Shown here piece after piece: positions 1,659 to 29,963 of a stretch of DNA of 64,000 bases. A model generated the notes under the pieces. The model worked only from the letters and a program-made list of their open reading frames with translations. It was not told the DNA's origin and did no database searches. The stretch is from a virus: the IMG/VR virus record IMGVR_UViG_2922401287_000005, positions 29,641 through 93,640 of that record; one strand, written 5' to 3'. The first letter of the stretch is position 1. The number at the start of each line of letters is the position of its first letter. A program made the translations under genes and the position numbers.

Positions 1659-3260
1659 TTAGCCGTTGGCGATGTTCGAGATCATCGCGAAGGCGGGCGG
1701 GAAGTAGCACTGCAGCACTTCGTCGGCGTAGACGCCCGACTCGTACTTGCGGGTCCGCAGCGGCCACTCGATCTGGTAGTAGTCCTGACGGCAGCGGACC
1801 TGCAGGACGTTGGCGATACCCGAGACCGGGTACGGCAGCGACTTCGACGTCATCACGATCGTGCCCGCGGGCATGTTCGGATGGATGCGGATGTCGAGGG
1901 TCTTGGCGCCGCCCATGCTGAAACGGTTCAGATAGGTGCGGACCATGATGCCGCCGCCGAGGCTGTCGCGCTCGGAGTTGAACACGAACCGCTGGGCCGC
2001 GTTGGACGAGCCCTGCAGGATCTTCTTGGAGATGTTCAACGCCTCCTGCGAGTTCACCCAGATGGTGTCGGGCGACAGGCGGAAGTTGTCCCAGCGATCC
2101 TTCAGCGCGGCGTCGATCTCGACGATGCCGCCGGAGCCGTCCGAGGTCAGCGGCGTACCGACGCCGGCAGCGCCGGTGGCGAGACGGCCGACATAGGCAT
2201 TCGACCCGGCCTTGAGCAGCTGGGTCATGATGCCGTCGAACACGAGGCTGTTGGTCGACTGGTCGCTCGACGGCAGCGAGGCTGCGGTCTGCGTGCCGGT
2301 CGCGGCCGCCACGATGGCAACCGAATTGATCGAGGTGATCGCACCGAGCACCTCGGAGCCAGCCGCGCCCCAGAACCAAGCGTAGCCGCAGGCGCCGTTG
2401 ACCGCCGCAACGGTCGCCGTCAGCGAGCCGGTGGTGCCGCTCGCGACGGTGCCGGTGGCAGCCACCGACTTCTGCGCGGAGCCGCCGCCGAACGTGTCGG
2501 ACGAACCGTCAGCGTTGGCGCGGGTGATCGAGGCCTGGATACCGCCGGCGATCGAGCCGTTGACCATGGCATCGAACGCGAGCGCGACGCAGATCACCGA
2601 GTAGGTCGCGGCAGCCAGAACGCCGCCGGTGATCGAGGCCGCGACCGTCGGGGTCGGGGTGATGCCGAGCTGCAGCGAGGTGTTGCCACCGAGCAGCAGC
2701 GCCTCTTCGCCGATCATGGTGGCCTCGAGGCCGACCTTGGCCGCGATCGCCCGGATGTCGTCGAAGCCGCGGCCAGCGTACTCGGCCTCGAAGTCGACGT
2801 TGGTTTCCAGACCGATGCCGCGGTAAGCCGCCGCGTAGTCCTGCGTGGAGACCGCCTGCACGCCGCCGCGGTTACCGGCCGAGACGCCGATCCGCATGTT
2901 GGCGGTGTTCACGCCGGTGACCGCACGCCAAGCGGCCTGAATGCCGCCCTTGCCGGTCACGCGCGGAATTTCGTTCCGCAGCGGGGTGAGAACCGGGTAC
3001 ACGAACTTCGCGCCCAGCTCGAGGTCGTAGTAGGTCAGGCCCGTGGTGGGCGAGCCGGCCTGCTGGAACGTCGCCGACTTGGCGAACATCTCCGGGACGA
3101 AGTTGCGCGCCTCGTGCGACTTCGACATCGACGCGAGGAAGGACTGCACTTCGGCGGCGATCGCAGCGCGATCGAGGTTGCCGTTGACGGTGTAGATCGG
3201 CGCCCACGACTTCTGCAGCTCGTGCGGCAGGAAGTCGGTATACTTGACGAGAGCGTTCAT
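1659..3260 (-). CDS. Major capsid protein (HK97-like) with an internal Ala/Thr/Gly-rich insertion
   Basis: 533 aa, GGAG RBS, follows the protease/scaffold gene; N-terminal YDLE..AK..YPVLTPLRN and C-terminal EVLQCYFPPAFAMISNI resemble capsid proteins. Confidence 0.8.
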   Translation of the reverse strand: MNALVKYTDFLPHELQKSWAPIYTVNGNLDRAAIAAEVQSFLASMSKSHEARNFVPEMFAKSATFQQAGSPTTGLTYYDLELGAKFVYPVLTPLRNEIPRVTGKGGIQAAWRAVTGVNTANMRIGVSAGNRGGVQAVSTQDYAAAYRGIGLETNVDFEAEYAGRGFDDIRAIAAKVGLEATMIGEEALLLGGNTSLQLGITPTPTVAASITGGVLAAATYSVICVALAFDAMVNGSIAGGIQASITRANADGSSDTFGGGSAQKSVAATGTVASGTTGSLTATVAAVNGACGYAWFWGAAGSEVLGAITSINSVAIVAAATGTQTAASLPSSDQSTNSLVFDGIMTQLLKAGSNAYVGRLATGAAGVGTPLTSDGSGGIVEIDAALKDRWDNFRLSPDTIWVNSQEALNISKKILQGSSNAAQRFVFNSERDSLGGGIMVRTYLNRFSMGGAKTLDIRIHPNMPAGTIVMTSKSLPYPVSGIANVLQVRCRQDYYQIEWPLRTRKYESGVYADEVLQCYFPPAFAMISNIANG

Positions 3261-3449: not shown

Positions 3450-6413
3450 TCAGACCTGGCCGCGCGTCGGCATCTGCCGACGCATGGACGCCTCGGTGGC
3501 TCGGGTGTTGAGCTCCTCGGACGTGATCTTCGCCAGATCACTGGTCACCATGTCGATGGCCTTCTCCGCGACGCGGTAGGGACCGTTCGGCACGGCGGCC
3601 GGATAGAGCGAGACCTCGGCGACACGCTTGGTGAGGTCGCCGTTCTGGGTGGTCAGGGTCGCGATCTCCTCGCGGAGCGGGCCCGTGGCCTTGGCGACCT
3701 CGTCGCTGATCTTCAGCGCGATGCCGGCCTCGATGTCCTTGAACAGCTGGGCCTGCGCGGCCGAAGCGGCAGCGACCTGCGCCTTGAGCAGATCGTTCGC
3801 CTCGATCGCCTTGCCGAGATCGTCGCCGGCGGCCTTCTCCGCAGCACCGCAGCAGCCCTTGTCGAGCTTGACCATGGTGTCGTGGATCTCCTTGATCGCG
3901 GCGCGATCCTTGGCGCTGTGCCGCGCGCCGCGCTTGAGGAGATCGGCCAGCGGAGCTGCGCGCGTCAGCGCCTCGCTCTGCTCTTCGGCCTTGATGTGGG
4001 TCAGCACGGTGTCGAGCACGGCGGCGACGATGTCGCCGAGGTCGACCAGCGCGGTACCGAAGCGGTCGCGCAGCTCCTTCGGCACCTCGATGCCCCACTC
4101 GCCCTCGGTCATGTTCTCGCACGCCTGAACGCACGCGAGCATGTTGGTGAGGTCGCCCATCATGTAGAGGCCGGCGCCCTTGGCGAGCTCGTCGCCCTCG
4201 ATCGCCTCGCCCTTGAACACGAGTCCCTCGGGCAGCTTGTCGACGAGCGACAGCGCACGGGCGGCCTTGACCAGCTCGCGGGTCTCCACGTGGGAGGCGT
4301 TCAATGCGTCGAACAGCGTGATCGCCTTCTCGACGCCCTCGGCGGTGGTGAGGTCAGCCTTCTCGACGGTCGCGGTCTCGCCTTCGGGCTTCGCATCGCC
4401 CTCGGCACCCTTGGCGACCTCGGCGGGCTTTTCGCCGGTCTTGAGCGCATCGAGCACGGGAGCGGCCGCCTTGGCGACCGCGTCCTTGGCTTCGAGCTCG
4501 GCGAGCGCCTTCAGCAGATCGCCCTTCTTGGCGAAGGTCTGGTTCGGCAGGCGCGGCGACGCCCAGACCTGGGCGACGTCGTCGGGAGTGGTCTTGGTCA
4601 AATCGACGCCCTCGGTTGCGGTGTTTTCGATCGTGCCGCCGGCTTCGACGGTGGCGGTGGCGCCCTTGGCGACCTCGGCAGCGGCCGCCTCAGCGGCGAC
4701 CGGCTCAGCAGCGGGCTGCTCAACGGGAGCGGCCTTCTTGGCGGCGGCCTCGTCCTCGAGCGCCTTGCGGGCGTCGGCGATGTGCACCAGCCAGTCGCCA
4801 CCCTTCTCGGTCGCGATCTCGGTGGCGCGCTTGGCGACCATGTCGTTGGTGATGACGATCTCCTCGGTGGTCTCCGGCTTGGAGGCCTCGCCGCCGGCGA
4901 ACTTGCGCATCTCCTCGGTGCCGTCCGCCTTGATCATGGAGAACGTGGCGGAGGGGCCGCACGGCAGGTCGACCAGCGAAATCTCGGAGGGCGCGGCGGT
5001 GTAGCGCTTTGCGTCACCGTCCTGCCAGCGCTTCAGATAGCGGCCGCCGATGGAGAAGCCGGTGTAGACGCCCTCCTCGACCTTCTTCCACTCATTGTCG
5101 TCGACGACCTTGGCGGCGATGTCGATCGCCTTGCGCGCATCGTCGAAGCCGATGTCGGTCAGCTTGCCGGCCGCGATCGCCGAGTGCATCGAGCGCACGT
5201 TGCCGAAACTCTTGCCGTCGGTCACCTTCGCGATGTCGCCCGACCACCTCTCGAAGTGCGGCTTCGAGGTCGCGTAGTCGAAGATCTCGTTGGCGCGATC
5301 GACTTCCTCGACCACTGCGGTGCCGTAAACGATGCGCTTGGCGGCATCGACCTTCGCGATTTGCACGAAGAGCGAAAGATTATCCATGTCCAGTTCTCCT
5401 GCGTCGCGTTTTTCGACGACGGTTGACATCCAGTTTTCTTTGATCTCGGCCCACTGCTCGGGTCCGAACTCAAGCACGCCGTCGAACGGCGCCATCTCGT
5501 CGATGACGATGTCCGCTCCCTGATAGGTGAGCGTGACGTGCGATTTGAAGTCAGGCCACCGCCAGACGGCGCCTGCGTCGTGGATCTCGCGATGACGCGA
5601 GGCGAGCTCGTCGGAGTGGAAGCGAAGCACGAGGGCTTCACCTTCCTTGCCGAGGCGCTCGAGGTGACGCTCACCGCCTTCGACCCGGAAGATCGGCACG
5701 CTGGAGCGCGGCACGCCGGACCATTCGACCGGCTCTTTCGAGTAGGCGATGGTGACGTGGAAATCGTCGATGGGCAGCGTGACCGGGAAGCCGTTGGCTG
5801 CGGCCCAGCTCTTGAGTGCCTCGCCGTTGCGAAGGCTGCGCTTGATGTAGAGCGTGCGCTTGTCGCCCTTGGCGAAGCGCATCGGGCCGCCCTCGACGAC
5901 GGAAATGACGAGCGGCAGCGAAGCGCGGACGCCAGGATGCAGCGGCTCGGGCGGCGCGCGCAGATATTCCCAGCGCGCCTCGGTGTGCTCGTCGTTCAGC
6001 TTGACGGCGAGCTTCTCCTCGACGCGCTGAACGAAGGTGGTGAAGTCGACCCGGCCGGTTGCGATCTGGCAGACCTGGCCGCGGATACCCGCAGGGTCGA
6101 GCGTGATGCCGGCCTCTTCGAGCGTCTCGCGGATCGCGGCCTCTTCGGCCGTCTCGCCCGCGTCGATGCCCCCACCCGGGAAATTCCACTCGCCGCCGTG
6201 GTCCCCGCCCGGAGCCCGCTTCATGAACAGCGCGCGCCCATCCGGGGTCACGATGGCGATGCCGGCCGCCTGATGGCGGCCTGCGTCCGGATCGACGGCC
6301 GCCTTGGTGGCGTCCTTCTTCTTTTTCTTCTTCTGGCCCTCGAGGTCGTAGCCCTGAAGGCCGGACGTTGCCGACGCCGGCGCGGCGAAGGTCGATTTCT
6401 CCGCCGCGGTCAT
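3450..6413 (-). CDS. Fusion protein: Nudix hydrolase + Acb1-like 2H phosphoesterase + prohead protease + scaffold
   Basis: Likely start 6413 (GGAG RBS); Nudix box GGIDAGETAEEAAIRETLEEAG; HVTIAYS and HVTLTY motifs; protease-like AKVD...RIVYG...NVRSMH...EISLVD; Ala/Glu/Lys-rich C-terminus. Confidence 0.85.
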   Translation of the reverse strand: MTAAEKSTFAAPASATSGLQGYDLEGQKKKKKKDATKAAVDPDAGRHQAAGIAIVTPDGRALFMKRAPGGDHGGEWNFPGGGIDAGETAEEAAIRETLEEAGITLDPAGIRGQVCQIATGRVDFTTFVQRVEEKLAVKLNDEHTEARWEYLRAPPEPLHPGVRASLPLVISVVEGGPMRFAKGDKRTLYIKRSLRNGEALKSWAAANGFPVTLPIDDFHVTIAYSKEPVEWSGVPRSSVPIFRVEGGERHLERLGKEGEALVLRFHSDELASRHREIHDAGAVWRWPDFKSHVTLTYQGADIVIDEMAPFDGVLEFGPEQWAEIKENWMSTVVEKRDAGELDMDNLSLFVQIAKVDAAKRIVYGTAVVEEVDRANEIFDYATSKPHFERWSGDIAKVTDGKSFGNVRSMHSAIAAGKLTDIGFDDARKAIDIAAKVVDDNEWKKVEEGVYTGFSIGGRYLKRWQDGDAKRYTAAPSEISLVDLPCGPSATFSMIKADGTEEMRKFAGGEASKPETTEEIVITNDMVAKRATEIATEKGGDWLVHIADARKALEDEAAAKKAAPVEQPAAEPVAAEAAAAEVAKGATATVEAGGTIENTATEGVDLTKTTPDDVAQVWASPRLPNQTFAKKGDLLKALAELEAKDAVAKAAAPVLDALKTGEKPAEVAKGAEGDAKPEGETATVEKADLTTAEGVEKAITLFDALNASHVETRELVKAARALSLVDKLPEGLVFKGEAIEGDELAKGAGLYMMGDLTNMLACVQACENMTEGEWGIEVPKELRDRFGTALVDLGDIVAAVLDTVLTHIKAEEQSEALTRAAPLADLLKRGARHSAKDRAAIKEIHDTMVKLDKGCCGAAEKAAGDDLGKAIEANDLLKAQVAAASAAQAQLFKDIEAGIALKISDEVAKATGPLREEIATLTTQNGDLTKRVAEVSLYPAAVPNGPYRVAEKAIDMVTSDLAKITSEELNTRATEASMRRQMPTRGQV

Positions 6414-6435
6414 GGCGTCTCCGGGAGCTGGGGGA

Positions 6436-7644
6436 TCAGGTGAGCGTGTTGGCCCACGCCGTGATGGTCGGCGTGATGTTCGTGTTGCCAAGCGCGTTCG
6501 GGTGAATGCCGTCGGCGGTGAGAACGCCGCCCGAGACCTTCCACTTGCCGGGGTTGGCCGGATCTTCGACCACCGCGGCGACGTCGATGACGCCGTCGAT
6601 GGTCACGCCGACCTGCGTCAGCAGCCATGCGTTGAACAGGCCGCGGATGCCGGTGCTTTCGTAGTTGGCAACGACGGTCTGGCCGCCCGTCGTGGTGAAG
6701 CCGTCCGACGAGGTGCAGCGCGGCAGCAGCGTGCATTGGTAGACCTTGAGGCCCCGCGCCTTCGCCGACTTCCAGTTCGCGAGGGCCAACGTCTGCATGC
6801 TGGCGAGCGAGACGCCGCCGGCAGGGTCGTTGTTGCCCATGTCGGTGACGTAGTGGGTGGCGAAGTCCATCAGGCTGTCGCGCCGCCAGCCGTGCCCGAT
6901 CGCGCCCTCGCCCTGCAGGCTGTCGCCGGCACGCGCGAGGTTCATGAACGGGATCGCGCCGCCGGAGGCTGCGATCAGGCCGCGCTCGAGGAAGCCGTTG
7001 GCGCCGACGTTGTTGTTCACGTCAGCCACGCCGACCGCGATGCTGTCACCGCGGATCACGACGGCGGGCGTCGGCGTCAGCGGGTAGCCGAGCACTGCGA
7101 GGGGGCCATACCCCTTCGAGACCAGCACGCCGCCGTTCCCGACCATGGCGCCGGTGACGCCGAGCACCTGGCTGCTGCCGGAGGTGTTCTCGACGAACGT
7201 GTCGGCGGTGGTCAGCGTCAGCACGCCGTACTGCACGAATTGACCGGCAGACGCGACGGTGACGCCCGTCCGGATGGCGAAATCGGTCGAGGGCGCGAAG
7301 TCCGCGCCGATCTTGTCCGTGATGAAGTAGTGGGCGCCGGCGGAGAGCAGCCGGTTGACCTGGCCGCCGAAGAACGCTCGGCGCGTGAACACGCCAGTCA
7401 GCGATTCCAGCGCCGCCTCCACCGTGATGTCGTTCGGCGCGTCAGCGTCCGAGCTGGTCGCGTTGGCAAGGAAGTTGCCGTACAGGAGGCAGATGTCGCG
7501 CACATAGACCGGCGCCGAGCGCATCTTGATGCGGCTCTCGAACCGGGTCGCGGTGCCGCCGCCCTGCGTGTAGTCGCCCATGACGCGGCCGCGCGTGGCG
7601 ACGACCTGCAGCTTGCGCGGGGAGATGCGTTGGAAGTCGGTCAT
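6436..7644 (-). CDS. SGNH/GDSL hydrolase domain protein
   Basis: GDSI (block I), GNND (block III) and DGIHP (block V) motifs. Confidence 0.85.
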   Translation of the reverse strand: MTDFQRISPRKLQVVATRGRVMGDYTQGGGTATRFESRIKMRSAPVYVRDICLLYGNFLANATSSDADAPNDITVEAALESLTGVFTRRAFFGGQVNRLLSAGAHYFITDKIGADFAPSTDFAIRTGVTVASAGQFVQYGVLTLTTADTFVENTSGSSQVLGVTGAMVGNGGVLVSKGYGPLAVLGYPLTPTPAVVIRGDSIAVGVADVNNNVGANGFLERGLIAASGGAIPFMNLARAGDSLQGEGAIGHGWRRDSLMDFATHYVTDMGNNDPAGGVSLASMQTLALANWKSAKARGLKVYQCTLLPRCTSSDGFTTTGGQTVVANYESTGIRGLFNAWLLTQVGVTIDGVIDVAAVVEDPANPGKWKVSGGVLTADGIHPNALGNTNITPTITAWANTLT

Positions 7645-8554: not shown

Positions 8555-8747
8555 TGAATTTGTCCCCCAAGGGTTCGAGCTCGCCGACCGAGACATACTT
8601 GTCCGGTCGCGCGAGCTGAGCGGCCGCCGCGTTGCGGTGGGCCATCTCGTTGATCCGGCGAAGCTCGGCGAGCGTCAGCATCTGCTGGCCGCTCTCCTTC
8701 GCCTCGTTGCGGCGAGCGCCGCGGTATGATCCGGCTGGTCGGGCCAT
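8547..8747 (-). CDS. Hypothetical basic protein (66 aa)
   Basis: ATG overlaps the portal stop; stop overlaps the next start. Confidence 0.55.
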   Translation of the reverse strand: MARPAGSYRGARRNEAKESGQQMLTLAELRRINEMAHRNAAAAQLARPDKYVSVGELEPLGDKFNG

Positions 8748-10432
8748 CACTTGTCCTTCTTGGTCGGCGGCTTGGAGCCGTCGACCTTGGTTGAGGGGGT
8801 CTTTGTGGAGGGGGTTTTGGTGGAGCCCGGCTCGGGCGCCGTGGGCTGCGGGACGGCTTGCGCCATCGCCTTCGCCTCGGCCACCTTGTTGTCGAGCAGG
8901 TTGGCGTCGATCGGCACAAGGCCGCTCGGCGTCATGACCATCAGCATGTTGGCGGCCGGGCTCGGGTCCGGCTCTTCGCCGATCCGGTCGCGCACCTGAT
9001 TGATGGTCAGGTTGCCGCTCTCTTGGTAGCCGCGCAGGATGGTCGACTGCTTCTCCGGGTCGATCTCCTGCTCTTCCGCCCACGCGAACTCGAGCTCGTC
9101 GTCGGAGAACTCGCGCATCAGCACGTCGTTGAGGGTCTCGGCGACCCACTGCTTCATGGGCTCGATGCCCTCCTCCTCGGCCTGCTTCTCGTGCTGCTCG
9201 GCGATCGAGCGGTTCGAGAGCGAGACGAAGGCGGCCGGCGGATAGGAGAACGCGAAGCAGACGATGCGGACCAGCCACTCGTCGAACTCGTTCTTGAGCG
9301 GCGGCTCCTTGAGCGGCGTGTAGGCGTTGCCGGAGCCGGTCGGGATGAACTTCATCCGGCGACGGTTGGCGAGGTTGCCCGAGAACAGATCGTCCCAATA
9401 CTGCTGGAAGCGCTGGGTCTGGTCCGGCGTCCACTCGGCGGGCAGCGAATACACCGCGTCCGGCTGGTTGCCTTCGCGGAAGTATTCGAGCTGCGCCAGC
9501 GAGCGGTGCAGCGCGATCGAGATGGTCATCACGACCTGCTCGACCGGCGAATAGCCATAGACCCGGTTGGGGCGCAGATTGAGCGGCCGATAGATCAGGT
9601 CCGCCGTGGTGTAGTTCACTGCCGGGAGACCTTTCAGCACCTGCTGGTAGGCCGGAGGCAGCATCGCGAACTTCGGCGGCTTCATGCCGATCGGCGTCTG
9701 ATGCGCGATCATGGAGCCGGGCACCAGCCGGAAACCGAAGGTTCGGTGGTTCTCCAGCGTGATGGTGTCGCCGTTCCACGTGAAGTCCTGCCCGGTGAAC
9801 GGGATGGGCTCCGGGGTGCGGCCCCAATCGTCGATCACCCGCTTGATGGTGCCGCCGTCGACGTAGCGCAGGCCGATCAGCCCGCCGCCACGGTTGCGCT
9901 CGCAGAAGATCGACGGGGCGTCGATCACGAGCAGATCCTCGAGGATCGCGCGCAGCCAGGATCGGAAGGTCATCTCCCGGTCGGGCCGCTTGAAGAAGCG
10001 CGTGATCTCCTTGATGCGGTTCTGCTGAGCCGCAGGCAGCTCGGAGATCGCCGGCCGCTTCTTCTTGCTGGTGTCCTCGTGCTTGACGCGGATGGTCCAC
10101 GGCAGGCGGCACATCTGATCCTTGCGCCGCTCGATGACGAGCCGCATCGGATCGTAGCTGTCGGCGAGGTTGCGCAGCGCCGGGAACGAGATTTCCTCGT
10201 AGGTGCGCGGCGTGGTGGCGAGGTTGTAGCCCGGGATGAAATCCCAGACGCGGCCTGCGACCTCGGGCGGGGCAATCGGCTGGATCGGGTTGAGAGGTCC
10301 GAACCAGTCGGCGCCCTGCGCGGTGCCGTAGCCCGCGCCCGGCGTGACCGGGCGCCCCTGCGACGACACGCTGACGTCGTAGGGAGAGAGCGACCGCATC
10401 GAGCGGCCTTCTCCGCGAGGGGTGGACACCAT
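8747..10432 (-). CDS. Phage portal protein
   Basis: 561 aa directly after terminase; WLRAILEDLLVIDA, YGYSPVEQ and DEWLVRIVCFAF are portal-like motifs. Confidence 0.88.
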   Translation of the reverse strand: MVSTPRGEGRSMRSLSPYDVSVSSQGRPVTPGAGYGTAQGADWFGPLNPIQPIAPPEVAGRVWDFIPGYNLATTPRTYEEISFPALRNLADSYDPMRLVIERRKDQMCRLPWTIRVKHEDTSKKKRPAISELPAAQQNRIKEITRFFKRPDREMTFRSWLRAILEDLLVIDAPSIFCERNRGGGLIGLRYVDGGTIKRVIDDWGRTPEPIPFTGQDFTWNGDTITLENHRTFGFRLVPGSMIAHQTPIGMKPPKFAMLPPAYQQVLKGLPAVNYTTADLIYRPLNLRPNRVYGYSPVEQVVMTISIALHRSLAQLEYFREGNQPDAVYSLPAEWTPDQTQRFQQYWDDLFSGNLANRRRMKFIPTGSGNAYTPLKEPPLKNEFDEWLVRIVCFAFSYPPAAFVSLSNRSIAEQHEKQAEEEGIEPMKQWVAETLNDVLMREFSDDELEFAWAEEQEIDPEKQSTILRGYQESGNLTINQVRDRIGEEPDPSPAANMLMVMTPSGLVPIDANLLDNKVAEAKAMAQAVPQPTAPEPGSTKTPSTKTPSTKVDGSKPPTKKDK

Positions 10433-10448: not shown

Positions 10449-12158
10449 TTACGTTGTGGGCCCCGCTTGAGGCGTTGGCGCGGGCAGCGGGACGCGCTCC
10501 CAGCCCCGTTGCATGAAGGCTGAGGCGTCGTCCTTGCTGACGGCGATGATGCGGTTGGCCGGCGGGTATGCTGCCGTGCCGTCCATCAGGTAGACGGTCG
10601 AGACGTCGTCCGGCACGCGGATCAGCACCTTGTCGCGCGGAGGCGTGGCCGGTGTGATCTCGAAGCCGAACTGGGGACCTTCCGGAGGCGGGGCGCTTGC
10701 GGCCCCGCTGTGCTGCTGCGCGCCCTCGGCGAGCCGCTTGTAATACTCGATCCAGCTGTTGGCGCCGGAAGCGAGAGCCAGGTCGTTCACCGCCCAGATC
10801 CATGCGTCGGCCCGGTCGGGAGACTTGGGCCCCGTGTAGCCGAGCGTGGTGAAGGCGGTGAGCTGGTCCTCCAGCTCGTTGAAGCGTCCGACGTGGCGCA
10901 CCCCGTTGCGGGTATACAGCGTGGAGATCGGCTCGGCGCGGACGTGCTTGCCCTTGCCTGCATGGACCACGCGCACCGGGACGGCGCCGTCCAGCGAGCG
11001 GATGACGTAGGCGACCATGTCGCCGCCGTAGTTGATCTCGGCGATGATGTGGTCGGCACCGTAGGCGTGGTAGGCGGCGATTGCCGCCTTGCCCCAGTTC
11101 TCGGGACCGCCGACGATCGACAGGTCGGCGCGCAGATAGACGCGGTTGTCCTTGCCAAGCGAGGCGACAACGATGCCGATCTCGTCGTTCTTCGGCTTCT
11201 GCTCGACGTCGGTCTTGTCGCCGGGCTCGGATGCGCCGGACGGGTCGATCGAGACCACGGTCTGCACATATTCCGGCTCGTCGCCGACGGCGACGCGGCA
11301 GCTCTCGATCAGCTCGGTGGTCCAGAGCGCACCGGCGTTCTCGTCGATGTAGGAGCCTTCCCAGAACCGCTTGCGATAGTTGCCGGTCGAGTTTTCGAGC
11401 TCCTTGATGTAGCCAGCGTCAAGGTTCGCCATGTTGTCAGCGGGATTGATGAACATCCGCTGGTAGTTCTCGGGGTCGTTGATCGCGACCTTGGTCTCGG
11501 GGTCCTTGAGGTCGCCGAACAGGACGTTGGTCCAGTGCGACTTGCCGACCGGGTTGATGTCGTAGAACATCCGCTGCCGGCAGCCGTCGACGACCTGGGC
11601 GAGACGCGAGCGGACCAGCTTGGCGGTGTACCAGCTGATCTGCGAGCACTCGTTGAGGAAGATGGTGCAGTATTCGGCACCGAGGATCTTGTCGGCGCGC
11701 GACGCATCGTCGAGGCCGCCGATCCAGATTTCCGACCCGTTCGGGAAGCGCACCACGTTGTGCGGGTGGCGCGAGTGCTTGTACTTGGTCCCTGGGAAGA
11801 AGAGCTTCATCACCTTCGGCAGGGTGTCGAGACCCACCGAGGCGTCGGCATGGACCGCGCGGTTACGCAAGATCACATGGCGGGAGCCCGGGAAGCGGAG
11901 CGCGCGCAGCACGATGGTGCGGACGAGCGTCGTGGTCTTACCGGAGCGGGCGCCGCCGACCAGACAGGTGTGGCGCTGATCGCCACCGAGCAGGATGGTG
12001 GCCTTCTCCTGCGCCGGCGTCGCGCCCTTCTCGCCCCATGACGAGAGCGGCGGGCCGCCGTTGTGCCCGATCTTCGTCGCGCCCTTCTCGCCGACAACGA
12101 CGAACAAGGGGCCCCGGCTGGAGGCCTTTTTCTGCCGCTTGCCCTTAGAGCTTGGCAT
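10449..12158 (-). CDS. terL: Terminase large subunit with C-terminal extension
   Basis: Walker A GGARSGKT; nuclease motifs VSIDPSG, DEIGIVV and SPDRADA. Confidence 0.92.
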   Translation of the reverse strand: MPSSKGKRQKKASSRGPLFVVVGEKGATKIGHNGGPPLSSWGEKGATPAQEKATILLGGDQRHTCLVGGARSGKTTTLVRTIVLRALRFPGSRHVILRNRAVHADASVGLDTLPKVMKLFFPGTKYKHSRHPHNVVRFPNGSEIWIGGLDDASRADKILGAEYCTIFLNECSQISWYTAKLVRSRLAQVVDGCRQRMFYDINPVGKSHWTNVLFGDLKDPETKVAINDPENYQRMFINPADNMANLDAGYIKELENSTGNYRKRFWEGSYIDENAGALWTTELIESCRVAVGDEPEYVQTVVSIDPSGASEPGDKTDVEQKPKNDEIGIVVASLGKDNRVYLRADLSIVGGPENWGKAAIAAYHAYGADHIIAEINYGGDMVAYVIRSLDGAVPVRVVHAGKGKHVRAEPISTLYTRNGVRHVGRFNELEDQLTAFTTLGYTGPKSPDRADAWIWAVNDLALASGANSWIEYYKRLAEGAQQHSGAASAPPPEGPQFGFEITPATPPRDKVLIRVPDDVSTVYLMDGTAAYPPANRIIAVSKDDASAFMQRGWERVPLPAPTPQAGPTT

Positions 12159-29597: not shown

Positions 29598-29963
29598 ATG
29601 ACCAAGTTCACCGCTTACCTTCACTGGTTCAACGCCGATGGCGAGTTCGAGTGCCACGTCCCAGTCGGACGCGGCCGGCCCCCCCCCCCCCCGCGAGGAG
29701 AACGCGCCCTTCGCTCGCGACGGCGTCCCCTTCACCAAATGTTTCGTGCGCATCTTCGGCGACGGCCGCATGGTCAAGCGTTTCGACGCCTGCAAGACCA
29801 AGGGCTGGCGCGTCGCCGCCTGATCCGCCCGCGTCCCACCGACTGGGTGCTGACGCTCGCTGACGGCACCACTAAGACCGTCACCATCTACGACAACCGC
29901 CATCTCCGCGAGGAGATGGCACGGCTCGGCGCCAAGCGCGCCGAGCCCACCGAGACCATCTGA
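29598..29963 (+). CDS. First operon gene(s); frame set by a C14 tract
   Basis: AAAGGAGACC RBS; C run at 29679-29692; the +1 frame REENAPF...VAA ends at 29823. Confidence 0.5.
   Translation: MTKFTAYLHWFNADGEFECHVPVGRGRPPPPPRGERALRSRRRPLHQMFRAHLRRRPHGQAFRRLQDQGLARRRLIRPRPTDWVLTLADGTTKTVTIYDNRHLREEMARLGAKRAEPTETI

Follow-up and report, generated by a model that had tools for sequence, protein, structure and literature searches.

A provirus head gene that may carry Nudix and Acb1-like enzymes as cargo on a prohead protease-scaffold protein

Acb1, the product of phage T4 gene 57B, is known as a soluble anti-CBASS nuclease for 3'3'-cGAMP and cyclic trinucleotides made during infection, a free protein of ~150 amino acids (aa) with a 2H phosphoesterase fold (Pfam family PF23474; represented by Erwinia phage FBB1 Acb1, PDB 7t26/7t27) and a catalytic HxT/HxT tetrad (H44, T46, H113 and T115; PMC9117128), and degraders of nucleotide signals residing in the virus particle have been predicted from domain fusions since 2017. 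Here we describe a gene of a 105-kb provirus (IMG/VR virus record IMGVR_UViG_2922401287_000005) in which a Nudix hydrolase domain and an Acb1-like 2H domain are joined in frame to a prohead protease and a scaffold-like tail. The gene lies on the minus strand (-) of the window, which is the whole 64,000-nucleotide (nt) stretch analysed, positions 29,641 to 93,640 of that record; coordinates below are those of the window unless a locus is named.

Phosphoesterases and Nudix hydrolases linked to phage head proteins were predicted by Iyer et al. in two purely computational studies, published in 2017 (PMC5512222) and 2022 (PMC9503650). The relevant passages of the 2017 paper describe 2H domains fused to MuF and portal proteins, offer degradation of defence nucleotides and a Usb1-like RNase role as the two options, and cite Alt of T4; those of the 2022 paper treat 2H domains on MuF or portal proteins as likely injected enzymes against SMODS-type signals, and consider, as another possibility, that effectors linked to the head counteract immune systems directed against packaging components. 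The passages on Nudix domains in these papers report fusions to MuF, to portal proteins and to a capsid-processing serine peptidase, with injection predicted. The word 'fused' is absent from Hobbs et al. 2022, where the two uses of 'fusion' refer to purification tags and where prophage Acb1 was called using proximity to structural genes, and the literature search found no experimental paper on Acb1 fused to a portal or maturation protease. The concept of head-linked 2H/Nudix effectors is therefore not new, going by these passages of Iyer et al. Their head-packaged polyvalent or head-protein-fused effectors resemble the gene in the window in that enzymatic domains are fused to capsid-interior proteins, and in that at least two effector domains share one polypeptide fused to a head morphogenesis protein, but differ from it in that both enzymes here stand together on a protease-scaffold, a combination not seen in the passages of the two papers that were searched. 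What this gene contributes is a two-enzyme version with both predicted active sites intact, nucleotide-level evidence for a nested start, a capsid look-alike tag, a candidate cleavage map and switching of domain order.

The internal proteins of phage T4 (IPI-III and Alt) bear a capsid-targeting sequence that is cut by gp21, and they are injected together with the DNA. Genes in which protease and scaffold are nested or fused include lambda C/Nu3, P2 gpO and the assemblin-scaffold genes of herpesviruses, and encapsulins have cargo-loading peptides, usually C-terminal, that bind a pocket of the shell protein.

Translation of 3450-6413 (-) gives a single open reading frame (ORF) of 987 aa, P0001, without an internal stop. 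Its main parts, with coordinates re-derived by script, are as follows:

3450-6413 (-): whole ORF P0001, comprising tag, poly-lysine run, Nudix domain, Acb1-like 2H domain, prohead protease and scaffold-like tail; stop codon at 3450-3452.
5934-6278 (-): Nudix hydrolase domain, aa 46-160 (Pfam NUDIX), with a complete Nudix box, aa 81-103, at 6105-6173.
5424-5858 (-): Acb1-type 2H phosphodiesterase domain, aa 186-330 (Pfam, AlphaFold2 (AF2) and Foldseek), with HxT motifs in 5739-5759 and 5523-5540.
4854-5387 (-): prohead serine protease domain, aa 343-520, with His410 at 5184-5186 and Ser454 at 5052-5054.
3453-4853 (-): Ala/Glu/Leu/Lys-rich scaffold-like region, aa 521-987, with a conserved C-terminal (F/Y)RV(V/A)EK 37 aa from the end.

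An earlier note on this DNA had described an in-frame fusion of Nudix and Acb1-like domains to a protease/scaffold with an internal start retained, and this anatomy is confirmed. At least 12 homologues (44-81% identity) carry both enzyme domains on the same protease-scaffold, and the frame of the fusion is uninterrupted in 10 DNA loci; the fusion is therefore not an assembly artefact. A protein 99% identical to it lies on a contig of 9.8 Mb, and among named relatives the closest come from Bradyrhizobium.

The 2H part matches Pfam Acb1 (PF23474) over profile positions 1-143 of 144 (aa 186-330, E 2.5e-33, 115.2 bits against a cut-off of 27), and neither LigT_PEase nor 2_5_RNA_ligase2 reaches E = 1 on the fusion protein; the PHROG label of this part is 'RNA ligase'. 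The motifs HVTIAYS (aa 219-225) and HVTLTY (aa 292-297) lie exactly where the earlier note placed them, and the likeness to Acb1 that it saw in the segment LVL..S..L..RH..GA is upheld by phmmer, which aligns both HxT motifs and ALVL..SD.L..RH...GA with FBB1 Acb1 (7t26) and pairs H219-V-T221 and H292-V-T294 with HTT and HIT of that protein. The 2H fold and the HxT/HxT tetrad are shared with Acb1, the spacing of the two motifs being 73 residues here and 69 in Acb1 numbering, and among 73 Acb1-domain relatives both HxT histidines are invariant and both threonines nearly so. The AF2 model of aa 180-330 has a predicted local distance difference test (pLDDT) score mostly above 80, with most 10-residue blocks above 90, and Foldseek, named in the earlier note as a check, ranks 7t26/7t27 first (E 2.9e-9, template modelling (TM) score 0.74 by target); these two Acb1 entries and a phage phosphodiesterase are the best structural matches, followed by LigT, cyclic phosphodiesterases (CPDases) and Usb1. 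The full-length Pfam match reaches the end of the profile, and a conserved GPE..W.E..E segment is present, which may correspond to the lid that bears the adenine-contacting glutamate E141 in Acb1. Unlike Acb1, this is a predicted domain inside a 987-aa head polyprotein. A relative from a Rhodocyclaceae metagenome-assembled genome (P0006, locus L003) has Asn for the second catalytic His (NVTLTY), suggesting that not every cargo copy is an active nuclease; the copy in the window has both His residues.

The Nudix domain is recognised by Pfam NUDIX (PF00293; aa 46-160, E 1.5e-18, 67.5 bits against a cut-off of 21.1). The full Nudix box of the earlier note is present, with GX5EX7REUXEEXGU complete and Thr at the first U position, but its position was misplaced by roughly 10 nt (about 6115-6185 for 6105-6173); the box is conserved across fusion homologues. 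The closest PDB entry is RenU (4.4e-12), and the AF2 model of this part is poor, with only five sequences aligning there. A literature search found no paper on a Nudix enzyme acting against Thoeris.

That a protease follows the enzymes, as the earlier note had it, is borne out by a PHROG head maturation protease match (1.6e-9), by an AF2 model with pLDDT 87.7 and by Foldseek, in which T4 gp21 (5jbl; probability 1.0, TM score 0.61 by target) takes the top three places and herpesvirus proteases come next; the fold is thus assemblin-like, of the type of T4 gp21, HK97 gp4 and herpes assemblin. His410 and Ser454 (in GFSIGG; His68 and Ser112 in protease numbering) are invariant in 110 sequences. The Pfam cut-off for Peptidase_S78_2 (XkdF-type) was missed (18.1 bits against 24, with 27 residues matched), and the domain is treated as a fold-level relative of that family, not a member. 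The last 467 residues start as predicted helices in the AF2 model and have no Pfam, PHROG or NCBIfam match; from its position, and with no other scaffold gene seen between the portal and capsid genes, we take this tail, whose composition also fits, to be a candidate scaffold in a layout like that of P2 gpO. The protease family has 322 relatives in species-representative genomes, being widespread in Hyphomicrobiales prophages of Bradyrhizobium, Methylocella, Methylobacterium, Rhodoblastus and Xanthobacteraceae (loci L002-L081), in most of which the protease ORF is just ~330-380 aa long, and the scaffold is therefore probably a separate gene there.

Two starts can be recognised in the frame, each with its own Shine-Dalgarno site:

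6419-6422 (-): GGAG, 5 nt before ATG 6413, the start of the long isoform (-6.6 kcal/mol).
5396-5400 (-): internal AGGAG, 8 nt before ATG 5387, within GCA-GGA-GAA.
5385-5387 (-): ATG of Met343, where most cargo-less homologues begin and from which a protease-scaffold isoform of 645 aa is predicted.

The internal AGGAG, its 8-nt spacer and the ATG (MDNLSLF) are exactly as first noted, and several observations argue that this start has been kept. Among 121 homologues, most of those without an N-terminal extension start exactly at the residue aligned with Met343, where in genomic loci the ATG is preceded by a strong AAGGAG-type site, and ATG and Shine-Dalgarno-like site are retained in 10 of 10 fusion loci (~40-80% protein identity). 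Across the 10 fusion loci, pairing of the 15 nt before this ATG with the anti-Shine-Dalgarno sequence has energies of -5.1 to -8.5 kcal/mol, which are attained by fractions of 0.013-0.18 of in-frame positions in the same genes. In the window and in three diverged relatives, the Ala-Gly-Glu before Met343 is spelled with three rare codons, GCA-GGA-GAA (joint usage 0.0004-0.0017), GGA making up only 3-6% of the glycine codons of these four genes; this spelling points to selection acting at the nucleotide level and argues for a nested product, a protease-scaffold of 645 aa. The further claim that the long isoform is in the minority is unsupported, the two Shine-Dalgarno sites scoring -6.6 and -7.4 kcal/mol. 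Met178 also has a Shine-Dalgarno-like site but was rejected as a start for want of conservation among homologues. A further in-frame ATG, that of aa 847, follows AAGGAG (3873-3893 (-), -8.4 kcal/mol) and is a possible third nested start, which would give a 141-aa C-terminal scaffold fragment. In one related locus (L008:3408-6000), an 862-codon ORF in the same frame closes with a single TGA just upstream of the protease start, the ATG following two codons after the TGA; this may be coincidence, which would give the same frame one time in three, or may reflect read-through or a variant of the fusion.

The N-terminus of the long isoform is a copy of a motif in the neighbouring capsid-type protein:

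6336-6398 (-): N-terminal tag, aa 6-26, KSTF..SATSGLQGYDLEG, which copies the capsid-protein motif.
6315-6332 (-): six lysines, aa 28-33, matched in homologues by a run of Arg/Lys in the corresponding position behind the tag.
3012-3080 (-): capsid-protein motif, aa 61-83, KSATF..TTGLTYYDLELG, in the capsid gene (1659-3260), where a variable leader ends and the conserved core begins.

At least 36 homologues conserve the tag: in 26 it opens the protein as M-STF, and in 10 it stands between a cargo module and the protease. A BLAST comparison among head-module proteins matched the tag peptide with residues 60-81 of the capsid protein, and in related loci the motif was present in 7 of 7 capsid proteins and the tag in 6 of 7 fusion proteins. 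A hidden Markov model (HMM) built only from the 22-aa N-terminal peptides of fusions, searched against 8677 ORFs from 88 loci, recovered the N-termini of the fusions, its further matches being nearly all to the capsid-protein motif, in ~70 loci; within the 105-kb provirus the motif is confined to the fusion protein and the capsid protein. From the motif Lys to the C-terminus the capsid proteins measure 470-478 aa in most loci (up to 486), whereas the leader varies in length and sequence; no solved relative of the capsid protein was found by sequence search. On this pattern the leader would be a propeptide whose removal takes place next to KSTF, and the tag may give the cargo or the protease the N-terminus of a mature capsid protein, to serve as a docking element, as a protease recognition site, or as both.

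A second short motif, h-x-E-K, may mark where the prohead protease cuts. It occurs at these places in P0001:

6396-6407 (-): aa 3-6, just before STF.
5409-5420 (-): VVEK, aa 332-335, candidate protease cleavage motif at the cargo/protease border, proposed from the h-x-E-K pattern.
4803-4814 (-): aa 534-537, just after the protease domain.
4359-4370 (-): aa 682-685.
3834-3845 (-): aa 857-860.
3561-3572 (-): aa 948-951, 37 residues from the end.

Across the protease family h-x-E-K was observed 212 times, against 117 +/- 11.5 in composition-preserving shuffles, with a peak 30-50 residues from the C-terminus, and it also sits at domain borders; these sites are candidates for cleavage by the prohead protease, which might in this way free a tag-Nudix-Acb1 fragment of ~36 kDa. 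A reading of VVEK as part of the Acb1 lid (Acb1 domains elsewhere also end in acidic residues) was dropped after the enrichment of h-x-E-K at other borders was seen, VVEK remaining a candidate only.

With its internal start, tag and candidate cuts, the gene can be compared with the better-known systems. Lambda C/Nu3, P2 gpO and the herpesvirus assemblin-scaffold genes likewise hold protease and scaffold in one frame, with in-frame internal starts and C-terminally identical products, and the candidate cut that would remove a short C-terminal capsid-binding tail has its counterpart there; in these genes, however, the scaffold is nested in the protease gene, whereas here an enzyme cargo is added upstream of the protease. 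The h-x-E-K pattern also resembles the processing programmes of herpesviruses and T4, as far as sequence alone reveals it. As with the T4 internal proteins, a short N-terminal signal would tie the cargo to the head-maturation machinery, one protease being the candidate for processing both capsid protein and cargo, and, as with their capsid-targeting sequence, a short signal, found by the tag HMM, is common to the cargo N-terminus and the leader/core junction of the capsid protein. In T4 the cargo genes are separate and the peptide removed targets the scaffolding core; here cargo and protease-scaffold form one covalent chain, whose tag looks like the beginning of the capsid core and may be retained. 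Encapsulins share the HK97-fold shell and the loading of enzymes through a short conserved peptide (putative here), but their peptides do not copy a segment of the shell protein.

The position upstream of the protease behaves as a slot with exchangeable contents. On the same protease-scaffold, the N-terminal part may be Nudix-Acb1, Acb1-Nudix, Nudix alone, Acb1 alone, a ChaB-annotated or Cys-rich module, an unannotated module of ~165 aa, the short tag only, or nothing. In a quick maximum-likelihood tree of the protease domain, with support from the Shimodaira-Hasegawa-like approximate likelihood-ratio test (SH-aLRT), one clade (97%) includes 18 cargo-bearing proteins, and the order of the enzymes switches within its well-supported subclades; elsewhere on the tree, forms with and without cargo pair as sisters (99% support). 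Within 6 kb of the protease, ~78 cargo-less relatives yielded no separate Nudix or Acb1 gene of this clade. The ~165-aa module (MRDDERF...HE[ML]AE...) occupies aa 1-165 of P0031, P0034, P0039, P0041, P0042 and P0062, usually precedes the STF tag and Arg/Lys run, and in P0030 stands after a partial Acb1 domain; it has no Pfam or PHROG match, and the clusters obtained in an Atlas search, from phages and bacteria and ~160 aa in length, are all unnamed, with weak hints of zincins of the IrrE/SprT type. The Cys-rich module (QC..C..F..P.AC..V.G.I...G.C..Y), at about aa 30-90 between tag and enzymes, is found in P0005, P0006, P0007, P0011, P0014, P0015, P0016, P0018, P0020 and P0032, some such proteins having the precomputed Pfam label ChaB, and is absent from the protein in the window.

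The nearest Acb1-like domains are mostly found on head proteins. When the Acb1 domain was searched against 1.84 billion representatives, 1934 matches were obtained; just 17 of the best 144 outside the family have a length of 240 aa or less. A tally of Pfam families in 73 of these relatives counted portal families in 17, DUF2213 and ADP-ribosyltransferases in 12 each, S78_2 in eight, Mu_F in four and S78 in two, so that the partners of the domain are prohead proteases of three kinds, portals of three families, MuF and ADP-ribosyltransferases. The best PDB sequence match of the domain is the C-terminal 150 residues of the portal of cyanophage Pam3, whose motifs read HVT and HIS (8hds chain A, residues 466-615); the paper on the Pam3 structure describes the portal domains without a phosphoesterase domain, and the words 'phosphoesterase' and 'ligase' appear nowhere in its text. 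A portal-Acb1 fusion was verified in Rhizobium phage RHph_TM26 (L001:2699-4543), and portals of cultured phages that end in an Acb1-like domain include those of the Pseudomonas phiPSA1 group (hits H10-H17).

Taken together, these observations allow the gene to be read as a head-assembly polyprotein with a cargo slot, which through nested long and short isoforms provides a capsid-loaded counter-defence cargo; we judge the chances for and against this reading to be about equal. The enzymes are probably loaded into the head, on the indirect grounds that they are fused to the protease-scaffold behind a tag copied from the capsid protein, and that the nearest Acb1-like domains are mostly on portal, MuF and prohead-protease proteins. 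Two nested products, of 987 aa and 108 kDa from ATG 6413 and 645 aa from ATG 5387, would both enter the procapsid via their protease-scaffold part; the protease would then cut at h-x-E-K and free a Nudix-Acb1 cargo of ~36 kDa (aa 7-335), which, retaining its capsid-like N-terminus and basic run, might stay with the shell or the DNA and would most likely exit alongside the DNA when another cell is infected. In that cell, the role of Acb1 would be to linearise cyclic di- and trinucleotide alarm signals, those of CBASS (antiphage signalling based on cyclic oligonucleotides) and perhaps cyclic triadenylate (cA3), and the Nudix enzyme would hydrolyse a diphosphate-linked nucleotide, such as a signal derived from ADP-ribose. 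A CBASS target exists in the likely host genus, since genes of nucleotidyltransferases resembling cGAS and DncV (CD-NTases) are present in 31 of 151 Bradyrhizobium species genomes.

Several points weigh against this reading. The 2H domain is just 26-27% identical to FBB1 Acb1, and the phmmer alignment to 7t26 ends at residue 112, before the C-terminal lid. The Nudix domain finds no substrate subfamily (NudE/ADP-ribose, MutT or RppH) among the NCBIfam equivalogs, all matches being far below their cut-offs (MutT 45.5 against 97.9, NudE 23 against 169). The cleavage sites and the role of the tag are read from sequence patterns; the h-x-E-K count may be inflated, as E-K is common in helical, A/E/K-rich proteins and the shuffles preserve composition only, and the residue before the motif Lys of the capsid proteins is Glu in only about half of the loci. 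CD-NTase genes are absent from three lysogen genomes with related prophages, which is uninformative. An Acb1 fused to the portal would stay on the portal unless it is cut, fusion to a head protein alone does not mean injection, and being fused to a late head gene could be a matter of timing or dose and not of delivery.

The last of these points can be developed into the strongest rival, that the fusion, by tying Nudix and Acb1 to an abundant late protein, the protease-scaffold, ensures a late and high dose of both in the producing cell, where the enzymes act within the polyprotein or after self-cleavage, just as head proteins build up and signalling defences fire, encapsidated copies being a by-product. 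The gene does belong to a late head operon, between the portal and capsid genes; the activity of T4 Acb1 is seen from ~15 min into infection (PMC9117128), so that a pre-made enzyme is not required for an anti-CBASS function; and both the use of structural-gene proximity by Hobbs et al. to call prophage Acb1 and the suggestion, in the passages of Iyer et al. 2022 cited above, of effectors against immunity aimed at packaging would fit. We nevertheless consider late action without delivery rather unlikely: co-transcription alone would yield the same timing without a fusion, and this rival leaves unexplained the N-terminal copy of a capsid-protein motif, the joining of the nearest Acb1 domains to capsid-interior proteins (portal C-termini, MuF and three protease families) and the kept nested start, which dilutes the enzyme-bearing form.

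A less probable rival, and one that we rate as quite unlikely, makes both domains enzymes of RNA ends, the 2H domain a 2',3'-cyclic phosphodiesterase or RNase and the Nudix domain an RNA 5'-pyrophosphohydrolase or a decapping enzyme for nicotinamide adenine dinucleotide, which, packaged or not, would help to repair tRNAs cut by host anticodon nucleases or would attack host RNA. The PHROG name of the 2H part, the LigT, CPDase and Usb1 entries that Foldseek lists after Acb1, the Usb1-like option in the 2017 passages and the Nudix matches to RppH and MutT models as well as NudE, all of them weak, agree with such a role, but the Pfam Acb1 score of 115 bits, the failure of the two RNA-related 2H families to reach significance and the best structural matches all favour Acb1, and no partner such as an RNA ligase or a kinase-phosphatase turned up among the head-module genes. 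That the fusion is neutral or decaying, an upstream accessory gene having lost its stop so that the N-terminal 342 residues are dispensable or never translated, is highly improbable. In its favour, production of the protease-scaffold by itself is possible from the internal start, P0006 lacks the second catalytic His and cargo has been lost repeatedly on the protease tree, but the tag, Nudix box and both HxT motifs are conserved across the fusions at 44-81% identity, the long start has its own GGAG, the existence of both domain orders needs more than a lost stop codon, and ~78 cargo-less relatives have no free-standing Nudix/Acb1 gene within 6 kb upstream or elsewhere around the protease.

Within the reading of the gene as a cargo-bearing head polyprotein, a more tentative proposal, possible in our view but doubtful, is that the 21-aa tag (STF..SATSGL..YDLEG) and its basic run form a portable address for the capsid interior, mimicking the N-terminus that the capsid protein would acquire on cutting of its leader (between K and STF) and making the cargo slot plug-and-play. 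The tag would attach to the shell, within it or at its surface, or serve the protease as a recognition site, and this phage group would fill the slot with Nudix, Acb1, ChaB-like, Cys-rich or unannotated ~165-aa modules. A bolder corollary is that procapsids filled with cargo could, in the manner of encapsulins, already work inside the producing cell as porous nanoreactors by which small alarm nucleotides are drained. The locus is a compact test case, with both predicted active sites intact and the Met343 start providing a natural cargo-less control isoform, and the short tag common to the fusion and the capsid protein can be moved onto a reporter. If the tag is a loading or processing signal, it would explain the swapping of head cargo across a group of alphaproteobacterial prophages and offer a handle for loading foreign proteins into the heads of phages in laboratory strains.

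The head module on the minus strand begins with the large terminase (10449-12158) and the portal (8747-10432), followed by two small ORFs, a GDSL/SGNH esterase (6436-7644), the fusion gene, the 533-aa capsid-type protein (1659-3260; PHROG 13692, E 2e-138) and a fibre of the Gp80 type of GP4 podophage (331-1185). In the related loci L082 and L083 a gene for dGTP_diPhyd_N, a MazG-like nucleotide pyrophosphohydrolase that is missing from the window, stands between the fusion and capsid genes (L082:9108-9575, L083:8979-9446), adding a third nucleotide-hydrolysing enzyme to their head modules. The same two relatives keep the GDSL/SGNH esterase near the portal; in the window this 402-aa protein (PHROG 8480, E 2.9e-51) is encoded directly upstream of the fusion gene, and could be a virion-borne deacylase or another head-associated enzyme.

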